IMG/VR virus record: IMGVR_UViG_2681813205_000016
Span: 1-4,395 of that record
Length of the DNA stretch: 4,395 nt
Strand: one strand, 5' to 3'
Source of the DNA: a virus
Taxonomy: Duplodnaviria > Heunggongvirae > Uroviricota > Caudoviricetes
In this document: in pieces, positions 655 through 1,280 of the stretch
Layout: every line of letters starts with the position of its first letter
How positions within the stretch are numbered: the first letter of the stretch is position 1
Translations under genes and position numbers: made by a program
The notes under the pieces: model-generated
The model's database searches: none
Seen by the model: the letters and a program-made list of their open reading frames with translations, nothing else
Told to the model about the DNA's origin: nothing

Positions 655-717
655 CATGGTGTTCACAGAACACACAGTTACCGGACACATCAGTTTTCCA
701 TTCGTCCCCCGGCAGTA

Positions 718-745
718 CAGGCTTCCCGTCTGACGGGATAGCCTG
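718..745. other. Compound stem-loop (CAGGCT / AGCCTG outer stem with inner CCCG-TCTGA-CGGG hairpin)
   Basis: Perfect 6-bp outer inverted repeat enclosing a 4-bp inner stem, about 64 nt downstream of the DUF3950 stop. Followed by an A-run on the plus strand, and preceded by the T-run when read on the minus strand, so it is not a canonical intrinsic terminator in either orientation. Confidence 0.45.
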
Positions 746-765
746 AAAAAACACAGAAAATTATT

Positions 766-783
766 TGTTATAATTAATATAAC
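766..783 (+). promoter_or_regulatory. Extended -10 promoter element (TGtTATAAT) embedded in a perfect palindrome GTTATA-attaa-TATAAC; candidate promoter/operator
   Basis: TGnTATAAT consensus at 766-774 on the plus strand. The 6-bp inverted repeat with 5-bp spacer at 767-783 abuts the stop codon of the candidate minus-strand small ORF. No good -35 box was seen. Confidence 0.4.
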
Positions 784-924
784 TTACTCAAAAAAAAGCG
801 ACGAGAAAATCAGCATCAACGAGCAATAAGCGCCAATACGTGATAACAAATGGCAGCCATATTTATCTGCAGTATAAGCAATGGACAGGATAACCACACC
901 AGAAACCGTCAGCATAAAATCCAT
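784..924 (-). CDS. Candidate small hydrophobic peptide (46 aa), unannotated; possibly a compositional artifact
   Basis: ORF MDFMLTVSGVVILSIAYTADKYGCHLLSRIGAYCSLMLIFSSLFFE, below the ORF-track length cutoff. GGGGAAG SD-like motif 5 nt upstream of the ATG. Lies in an AT-rich region where the minus strand is T-rich, which inflates hydrophobic codons by chance. Confidence 0.25.
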   Translation of the reverse strand: MDFMLTVSGVVILSIAYTADKYGCHLLSRIGAYCSLMLIFSSLFFE

Positions 925-1061
925 TTGAACTTCCCCGGACAAAATCGACTCATCTAAAGATTTACAGCTCTTTTTATTATCAATATGTTAAAAGTAAAAT
1001 AAACAGATGTTCAATAATACGAATACAAAAACGTGCTGAAAATCAATGAATCCATTTCTGT

Positions 1062-1084
1062 GTTATCAATTAATAGTGATAAAC
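1062..1084. promoter_or_regulatory. Inverted repeat GTTATCA-attaatag-TGATAA(A)C, related in sequence to the 767-783 palindrome
   Basis: 6-bp perfect arms TTATCA / TGATAA around an 8-bp AT spacer. Shares the GTTAT.A...ATTAAT...ATAAC pattern with the palindrome at 767-783. Confidence 0.35.
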
Positions 1085-1280
1085 ATCCGGCTTCTTCCAC
1101 CATCGCACCGGACCAGCGACCATGAGGGGACAACGCCGCGCTCCGTTAACGCGGTAAACCCCGGTGTGTATCGTTTTTGATTATCCCCGCACACTCGCGC
1201 AGAGGATTCTCCCGGTCGGGCTGCGGTCTCTGTTAATGCAGGAATACGGCGACAATACCGCGCATGAATAATAAGGTCGC

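Follow-up and report, generated by a model that had tools for sequence, protein, structure and literature searches.

The question raised by this locus is what occupies a stretch of prophage DNA that had been read as non-coding. The interval spans positions 655 to 1280 of a 4,395-nucleotide (nt) stretch of a Caudoviricetes genome (IMG/VR record IMGVR_UViG_2681813205_000016, positions 1 to 4,395; hereafter, the window), which represents the late region of a lambdoid prophage of the enterohemorrhagic Escherichia coli (EHEC) type, read in reverse and with the late genes on the minus strand. It lies between ynfO, a DUF3950 gene, and an open reading frame (ORF) of 74 amino acids (aa). The original prediction, made from the sequence of the window, had described the interval as a non-coding, AT-rich island of 625 bp with paired palindromes, an extended −10 element, and a layout reminiscent of type I toxin-antitoxin loci, and had offered an operator hub or a small RNA (sRNA) locus as alternatives. 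Our analysis indicated that the interval consists of two unrelated, juxtaposed modules of a lambdoid prophage. Probably, these are a moron-type cassette with a real gene for a 46-aa, two-helix peptide and a conserved, non-coding structured RNA. The sequence features named in the prediction exist, but their interpretation needs replacing.

Composition of the interval

The GC content was 55% at 655 to 745, 31% at 746 to 1085, and 60% at 1086 to 1264, compared with 44% in ynfO and 47% in the whole window. An AT-rich core with the look of an autonomous unit was therefore present, but it covers only ∼340 bp (746 to 1085) and its flanks are richer in GC. Nor is the interval non-coding, since the ORF at 784 to 924 is annotated by the Prokaryotic Genome Annotation Pipeline (PGAP) and behaves as a real gene. 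The GC-rich block at 1085 to 1264, on which the prediction had not remarked, is a separate and highly conserved element. The principal features are as follows.

655 to 1085: optional accessory (moron-type) cassette, with its AT-rich core at 746 to 1085
784 to 924, minus strand: gene for a 46-aa hydrophobic peptide, MDFMLTVSGVVILSIAYTADKYGCHLLSRIGAYCSLMLIFSSLFFE
931 to 936, minus strand: Shine-Dalgarno-like GGGGAA, 6 nt upstream of the ATG
970 to 1004: 35-nt stretch identical in both otherwise diverged alleles; presumed 5′ untranslated region (UTR) or regulatory region of the small ORF
1085 to 1264, minus strand: conserved structured RNA element of ∼180 nt, the right conserved flank of the cassette slot

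A conserved gene for a 46-aa peptide

The small hydrophobic ORF had been predicted to abut the element at 766 to 783, and this was borne out by its stop codon at positions 784 to 786; the ORF itself proved to be real and conserved. It corresponds to PGAP entry WP_000347013.1 and was intact in 89 of 94 copies from viral contigs and genomes. The common allele was compared with that of the one divergent lineage (strain SHP24), whose match was 80.6% identical over the aligned 72% of the 655-to-1085 query and whose product is MGLMLTIAGVIVLFIACNADKYGYPLLSRIGAYCALILIFSSLFF. Over 135 nt, the two alleles differed by 25 substitutions without any indel, at a ratio of nonsynonymous to synonymous rates (dN/dS) of 0.28 and with mostly conservative exchanges (V/I, S/A, and M/I). 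Only the 46-aa frame was open in both alleles, the other five being interrupted in one or both. The GGGGAA motif was kept in the divergent allele while the spacer drifted from GTTCAA to CGACAA, and the 35-nt stretch at 970 to 1004, used as an exact pattern, matched 92 viral contigs. As judged from this comparison, the 46-aa ORF was shown to be a genuine gene, conserved as a coding frame with a ribosome-binding site.

The peptide has a grand average of hydropathy (GRAVY) of 1.11, and AlphaFold2 predicted helices at residues 2 to 22 and 24 to 44 with a predicted local distance difference test (pLDDT) score of 72. Its C terminus was variable: the frame contains an A8 run at 791 to 798, and copies with A7, A8, and A9 gave 49-, 46-, and 45-aa products. 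This homopolymer run may be prone to slippage. No family was found for the peptide in Pfam, PHROGs, NCBIfam, or PADLOC. Two very large searches, one of them an exhaustive HMMER search of 1.84 billion representatives, yielded only members of its own cluster, fragments, and repeat artifacts and no remote homologue. Within the reach of these searches, the peptide was shown to be an orphan restricted to E. coli prophages.

The cassette is optional and occupies a site of cassette exchange

A search with positions 655 to 1085 detected the cassette in 734 of 5,426 complete E. coli genomes (about 13.5%), nearly all copies being at least 97% identical. Only one phage record covered at least 80% of this query, and one more covered 79%. 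The cassette always adjoined ynfO, in varying backgrounds. In this window, it is accompanied by an HK97-like terminase plus an HNH gene; in O104:H4, O55:H7, ECO_2_R, and SHP24, the terminase module was a different one and the HNH gene was missing. Rz lay directly upstream in O104:H4, ECO_2_R, and SHP24, and a small hypothetical gene was located there in O55:H7.

The slot between ynfO and the conserved right-hand block was surveyed in 167 loci having this block and 1.5 kb of flank, by measurement of the distance from the ynfO stop codon to the block. The distance was 1 to 3 nt in 15 loci, representing the empty site. Occupied slots fell into classes of 173 nt (one example being L104, Stx2a_1447, positions 2328 to 2500), 430 to 440 nt (the present cassette), 464 to 479 nt (a DUF1398/YdfO-like gene, matching the order ynfO-ydfO in Qin of K-12), 601 to 608 nt (a gene for a 110-aa lipoprotein), and 840 to 873 nt (an unrelated cassette). 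Another 48 loci lacked ynfO; in this layout, seen in VT2-Sakai and PA2, the conserved block directly precedes the terminase genes. These results indicated that the cassette is optional and that the junction of ynfO with the RNA block is a hot spot for cassette swapping in EHEC-type prophages. The description as a moron site fits because an optional gene of a composition unlike its flanks is bordered by conserved sequence on both sides. In a separate observation, the AT-rich 173-nt filler of L104 was found to end in a canonical plus-strand terminator (CTGCTGTG..CACGGCAG followed by T7), which would stop the ynfO transcript ahead of the RNA element.

A conserved structured RNA on the minus strand

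Positions 1086 to 1264 were conserved in 398 phage records at 60 to 100% identity, and the carriers included Stx1- and Stx2-converting phages, lambda-like phages, and phage 21. In the loci examined, the sequence on both sides of this block varied. The first five sequences to be compared shared an identical core of 37 nt, the center of the block varied by indels that were not multiples of three, and every reading frame on both strands was broken in some variant. Coding readings of the block (VT2-Sakai “orf48,” the PA2 “Rz-like spanin,” and a 35-aa plus-strand ORF) were rejected, each being broken in some variant. In 108 of 187 loci, the distance from the end of Rz, or from that of the 74-aa fragment, to the start of the element was no more than ∼20 nt; in others, bor or further sequence lay in between. 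A partial copy was present between borD and ybcV in the DLP12 prophage of K-12, and other copies were detected in loci L003, L004, L009 to L011, and L104 to L106 and in about 200 viral-contig loci. Among species-representative genomes, the core was found in two Escherichia records and in three others, labeled as a Nanosynbacter metagenome-assembled genome (MAG), a Proteobacteria MAG, and Thiomicrorhabdus; these three matches were taken, unchecked, as contamination or misbinning. One viral contig (L118) had two diverged copies of the element ∼950 nt apart, at 5048 to 5242 and 5998 to 6192.

Folding was examined with an alignment, designated A3, of 55 sequences having a mutual difference of >3%. 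The energy of the consensus fold was −38.9 kcal/mol for the minus strand versus −19.0 kcal/mol for the plus strand, and the structure comprised eight helices, all given here as minus-strand RNA.

1252 to 1258 with 1168 to 1174: P1
1232 to 1246 with 1182 to 1194: P2
1221 to 1225 with 1198 to 1202: P3
1218 to 1220 with 1211 to 1213: P4
1160 to 1162 with 1126 to 1128: P5
around 1133 to 1151: P6, a variable hairpin
1116 to 1120 with 1102 to 1106: P7, which crosses P8
1107 to 1113 with 1085 to 1091: P8, which crosses P7

Standard pairs were formed in 98.9% of 2,469 cells of the alignment, and ten pairs were altered on both sides in a compensatory manner. None of 500 shuffles reached any of five pairing measures, and sliding of the 3′ partners by 1 to 3 columns reduced the pairing to 34 to 63%. 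When the same pairs were read as the plus strand, pairing decreased to 86.0%; there were 325 G·U cells versus 6 A·C cells. This asymmetry indicated that the functional molecule is the minus-strand RNA, that is, the late transcript. Its layout consists of a long-range helix around a branched 5′ domain, followed by an invariant internal loop (AUCAAAA on its 3′ side), the variable hairpin, and a 3′ pseudoknot. The central hairpin formed in nearly all of 24 distinct variants, three lacking it, and its stems differed by lineage (CCGCGUU/AGCGCGG, CUG.UGC/GCA.CAG, CUCAUUUUUC/GAGAUGGGAG, and CCGCGC/GCGCGG). Compensatory changes were present in both P7 and P8, and the loops of 2, 0, and 10 nt are as expected for a classical H-type pseudoknot, which is the probable form of these two helices as judged from the alignment.

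Rfam 15 gave no match at an E value of ≤1 anywhere in the window. At an E value of ≤10, positions 1085 to 1264 and 640 to 1090 matched only eukaryotic microRNA and small nucleolar RNA families and a Burkholderia sRNA, none of which came near the threshold. ARAGORN detected no tRNA or transfer-messenger RNA, and the core sequence had no match in literature text. Overall, the alignment has the hallmarks of a structured RNA at 1085 to 1264, namely, compensatory and wobble changes, strand asymmetry, and the lack of a conserved reading frame. The earlier suggestion of an sRNA locus was thus correct in placing an RNA element in the interval, but this element is GC-rich, on the minus strand, and not in the part to which the suggestion had pointed.

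Palindromes, hairpins, and predicted expression signals

The remaining elements of the interval were compared between the common and divergent alleles.

1042 to 1014, minus strand: best sigma-70-like promoter candidate for the small ORF (TTTTCA, 17 nt, TATTAT; 9 of 12 matches)
651 to 681, minus strand: hairpin GGUAACUGUGUGUUC-UGU-GAACACCAUGUUACU, then UAAUUAUGU; overlaps the ynfO stop codon
718 to 745: GC-rich compound stem-loop (CAGGCTTCCCGTCTGACGGGATAGCCTG)
766 to 783, plus strand: hairpin-type inverted repeat containing TGTTATAAT, an extended −10 consensus
1062 to 1084: imperfect inverted repeat (TTATCA-N8-TGATAA) lying at the cassette's right edge

The promoter candidate reads GTTTCA and GATAAT in the divergent allele, in which the −10 hexamer is kept. 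In a scan of positions 400 to 1600, 3 promoter-like and 2 terminator-like sites were detected versus 2.5 and 1.1 expected, respectively, and both counts are at the level of chance. Minus-strand RNA of positions 641 to 790 was unusually structured in the common allele (z = −3.58), with a 14-bp hairpin at 681 to 651 followed by UUAAUUAU, a weak U-rich tail. The divergent allele has a different hairpin at the same place, followed by UUUUACUU. The 651-to-681 hairpin is a candidate for the 3′ end or terminator of the small-ORF transcript, as far as folding predictions indicate.

Short, perfect inverted repeats of the hairpin type were modestly enriched at 655 to 1085 (6 versus 1.5 ± 1.5 in dinucleotide shuffles, 12 of 500 of which reached 6). 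The predicted TGnTATAAT was located at 766 to 774 on the plus strand, and the predicted GC-rich hairpin was located at 718 to 745. The latter was only 50% identical in divergent alleles (L003 and L018), and its U run is 5′ on the minus strand and its A run 3′ on the plus strand, so that neither direction gives a canonical terminator. The 766-to-783 element, described as a perfect 18-bp palindrome, turned out to be a hairpin with 6-bp arms and a 5-nt loop (GTTATA-ATTAA-TATAAC), and its TGTTATAAT reads TCTTATGAC in the divergent allele. The related repeat at 1062 to 1084 was found as described, but it is imperfect, with a half-site spacing of 8 nt versus 5 nt for 766 to 783, and the divergent allele does not conserve it (64% identity across 1046 to 1084). 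A short and tentative alignment showed a resemblance of 1065 to 1089 to the 3′ end of lambda-like ynfO, and from this similarity the 1062-to-1084 repeat may be partly a relic of that end. Overall, we read the palindromes and the stem-loop as hairpins of the 3′ UTR or the junction that belong to a single allele lineage, and not as conserved operators.

Two further readings of repeats were discarded. Repeats at 750 to 778 and 1055 to 1083 did not qualify as terminal inverted repeats of a miniature inverted-repeat transposable element, the arms not being colinear. Pairing of the upstream region of the cassette with the invariant loop of the RNA (repeats I14 and I22) was rejected by inspection; the order of the two segments does not permit a single duplex, and the divergent allele interrupts one of them.

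Weighing of alternative explanations

The type I toxin-antitoxin reading holds that the 46-aa peptide is a membrane toxin whose translation is blocked by a plus-strand antisense RNA initiated at the extended −10 element at 766 to 774. The cassette does share with hok/sok, ldr/rdl, tisB/istR-1, zorO/orzO, and ibs/sib a gene for a small hydrophobic peptide (<60 aa, with two predicted helices) on an optional, prophage-borne element and a consensus-like promoter element on the opposite strand, where a perfect TGnTATAAT is so placed that transcription from it would run antisense to the ORF. A single match of this kind is within chance, however, since at least one occurred in 31 of 200 shuffles of the window, and both this motif and the two palindromes were lost in the only divergent allele while the ORF was kept. 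No plus-strand terminator was detected in the scan of 400 to 1600. In the mRNAs of hok, tisB, zorO, and dinQ, the ribosome-binding site is sequestered by structure in the UTR; here, the 86 nt preceding the ATG were unstructured in both alleles (z = +0.95 and +1.09), and the fold of the putative antisense RNA at 780 to 925 was no more stable than those of shuffled sequences (z = −0.81). There are two hydrophobic segments in the peptide instead of one, and it matched no Hok, Ldr, TisB, Ibs, ShoB, or other toxin family in Pfam or NCBIfam and no PADLOC defense model, and no antitoxin RNA was matched in Rfam. A toxin-antitoxin locus was not supported, because the motif and palindromes are lost in the divergent allele and there is neither a plus-strand terminator nor a structured 5′ UTR, and we regard it as quite improbable. 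The loss of both palindromes also bears on the proposal that 766 to 783 and 1062 to 1084 form an operator or promoter hub bound by the adjacent YnfO protein or another regulator. Their half-site spacings differ (5 versus 8 nt), they are located downstream of ynfO and outside its promoter, and ynfO also occurs next to an empty slot or to unrelated cassettes in which they are missing. The match to a Fur box was 12 of 19, the same as in shuffles, and a Fur-box reading of the palindromes was rejected on this ground; Foldseek detected no significant fold match for YnfO. A hub of this kind is very improbable.

A recombination scar, in which AT-rich junk left by mosaic exchange contains a 46-aa frame open by chance and by recent common ancestry, would account for an orphan that is confined to E. 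coli and lacks remote homologues, for a C terminus that varies with the homopolymer run, and for the possible ynfO relic at 1065 to 1089; as almost all copies are at least 97% identical, their intactness says little. It is less easily reconciled with a frame that has stayed open across 25 substitutions while five others closed, with the low dN/dS and conservative exchanges, or with retention of the Shine-Dalgarno sequence and the 35-nt upstream stretch, and we consider it unlikely. Several points nevertheless weigh against a moron-type cassette next to a structured RNA. The dN/dS value rests on 25 substitutions between two allele lineages, the remaining population, at least 97% identical, being uninformative; the peptide has no homologues of known function, and its role is argued by analogy. 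The promoter and terminator predictions are weak. A search of the literature found no transcript, translation, or membrane data and no mention of the peptide, its accession number, the RNA core sequence, YnfO/DUF3950, or any EHEC sRNA located here, and searches of the supplements of EHEC ribosome profiling, microproteome, transcription start site mapping, and Hfq cross-linking studies were likewise empty. In the RNA, P7 and P8 could be mutually exclusive alternative helices rather than a pseudoknot.

Genes and other features of the window

The genes surrounding the interval are those of a lambdoid late region. ynfO is the only plus-strand gene among those listed for the window.

4378 to 4214, minus strand: holin
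3526 to 2993, minus strand: lysozyme
2722 to 2153, minus strand: Ant/Rha-type antirepressor
1996 to 1529, minus strand: Rz and Rz1
1281 to 1505, minus strand: 74-aa ORF, preceding the RNA element when read in the late direction
469 to 654, plus strand: ynfO/ylcI-family gene (DUF3950), convergent with the 46-aa ORF; conserved left flank of the cassette slot
427 to 26, minus strand: HNH endonuclease

Chromosomes of O157:H7, O26, and other E. coli strains carry copies identical over positions 600 to 1350 (a 751-bp query). In the copy of O157:H7 strain PV15-279, of which the flanks were read, the HNH gene is followed by terminase, capsid, and portal genes, with the terminase again on the minus strand. 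The 74-aa ORF covers just positions 100 to 172 of the 291-position profile phrog_2571 and probably represents part of a longer gene; in other prophages, the end of Rz directly adjoins the RNA element in place of this ORF.

Three side observations were made. A second small hydrophobic ORF of 50 aa (phrog_4906, of unknown function) is present on the minus strand at 2004 to 2156, between the antirepressor gene and Rz, at a position where RefSeq annotates a 48-aa hypothetical protein. At 14 to 46, a run of 13 T's is closely followed by a run of 7 C's at the 3′ end of the HNH gene, toward the terminase genes; the position of this unusual simple sequence is that expected for the packaging (cos) region of an HK97-like module. 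In the otherwise identical prophage copy of strain PV15-279 (L001, 8391 to 10237), IS1203 splits the lysozyme gene, which results in a lysis-defective copy.

Proposed functions and relation to known systems

For the cassette, we propose that the small ORF would be transcribed in the lysogen from its own sigma-70-like promoter at ∼1042 to 1014, with the transcript ending at the hairpins near 651 to 681. Late read-through by Q-modified polymerase would be expected after induction, because the small gene faces the same way as the late operon. The peptide would insert into the inner membrane as a helical hairpin and may serve the lysogen, for example, in superinfection exclusion or by modulating a host membrane protein, with no essential function in lysis. 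The RNA would act in cis on the late transcript, influencing its processing or stability at the boundary of the lysis and packaging genes, or alternatively may be released as a 3′-UTR-derived RNA. At the DNA level, the RNA block and ynfO would provide conserved flanks for the swapping of cassettes by homologous recombination. A more specific proposal is that 1085 to 1264 represents an undescribed structured-RNA family of Escherichia lambdoid late operons, which controls the late transcript or is released as a regulatory RNA on induction, and that the 46-aa peptide is a new prophage membrane effector; we advance this tentatively, with somewhat less than even confidence.

The nearest parallels to the cassette are the lambdoid morons (lambda bor and lom, HK97 gp15, ydfO/gnsB/ynfN of Qin, and borD/ybcV/ybcW of DLP12), in which an optional gene is likewise located between conserved late modules. 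As in these morons, the composition of the cassette (31% GC) is unlike that of its flanks, and the unit is present or absent at the same position in relatives. A candidate promoter-like site is predicted upstream, and hairpins with a weak U-rich tail are predicted downstream. The position is the same lysis-to-packaging junction that is occupied by bor, ybcV, and ydfO in lambda and K-12 prophages. The product, an orphan two-helix peptide of 46 aa, has no similarity to Bor, Lom, gp15, YdfO, GnsB, or YnfN. Type I systems differ from the cassette in having a conserved antisense promoter, an antisense terminator, a structured 5′ UTR, and recognizable families.

The RNA at 1085 to 1264 resembles the HK022 put RNAs, 3′-UTR sRNAs such as CpxQ and SroC, and the EHEC prophage sRNAs AgvB, AsxR, StxS, and Pas in being a conserved, covarying RNA structure in a phage operon, and its position immediately 3′ of a coding gene (Rz) is like that of 3′-UTR-derived RNAs. 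It matched none of the put, CpxQ, SroC, or EHEC prophage sRNA families in Rfam 15. The Pas sRNAs are located in the region from Q to the holin gene (bioRxiv 10.64898/2026.05.13.724894). The present element, in contrast, follows the lysis cassette. It also differs from the phage and enterobacterial RNAs compared here in lacking a canonical 3′ terminator and in having a probable H-type pseudoknot.

The cassette itself is of an ordinary moron type, with an uncharacterized peptide gene, and it adds an uncharacterized small membrane peptide to the candidate factors for lysogenic conversion or exclusion. For the RNA at 1085 to 1264, no description was found. An RNA structure directly after the lysis cassette is the more useful result, as it is carried by hundreds of Stx-converting and lambda-like phages. 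If it is true that this RNA governs processing of the late mRNA or yields a regulatory RNA, it would bear on the timing of lysis and on the release of Shiga toxin.

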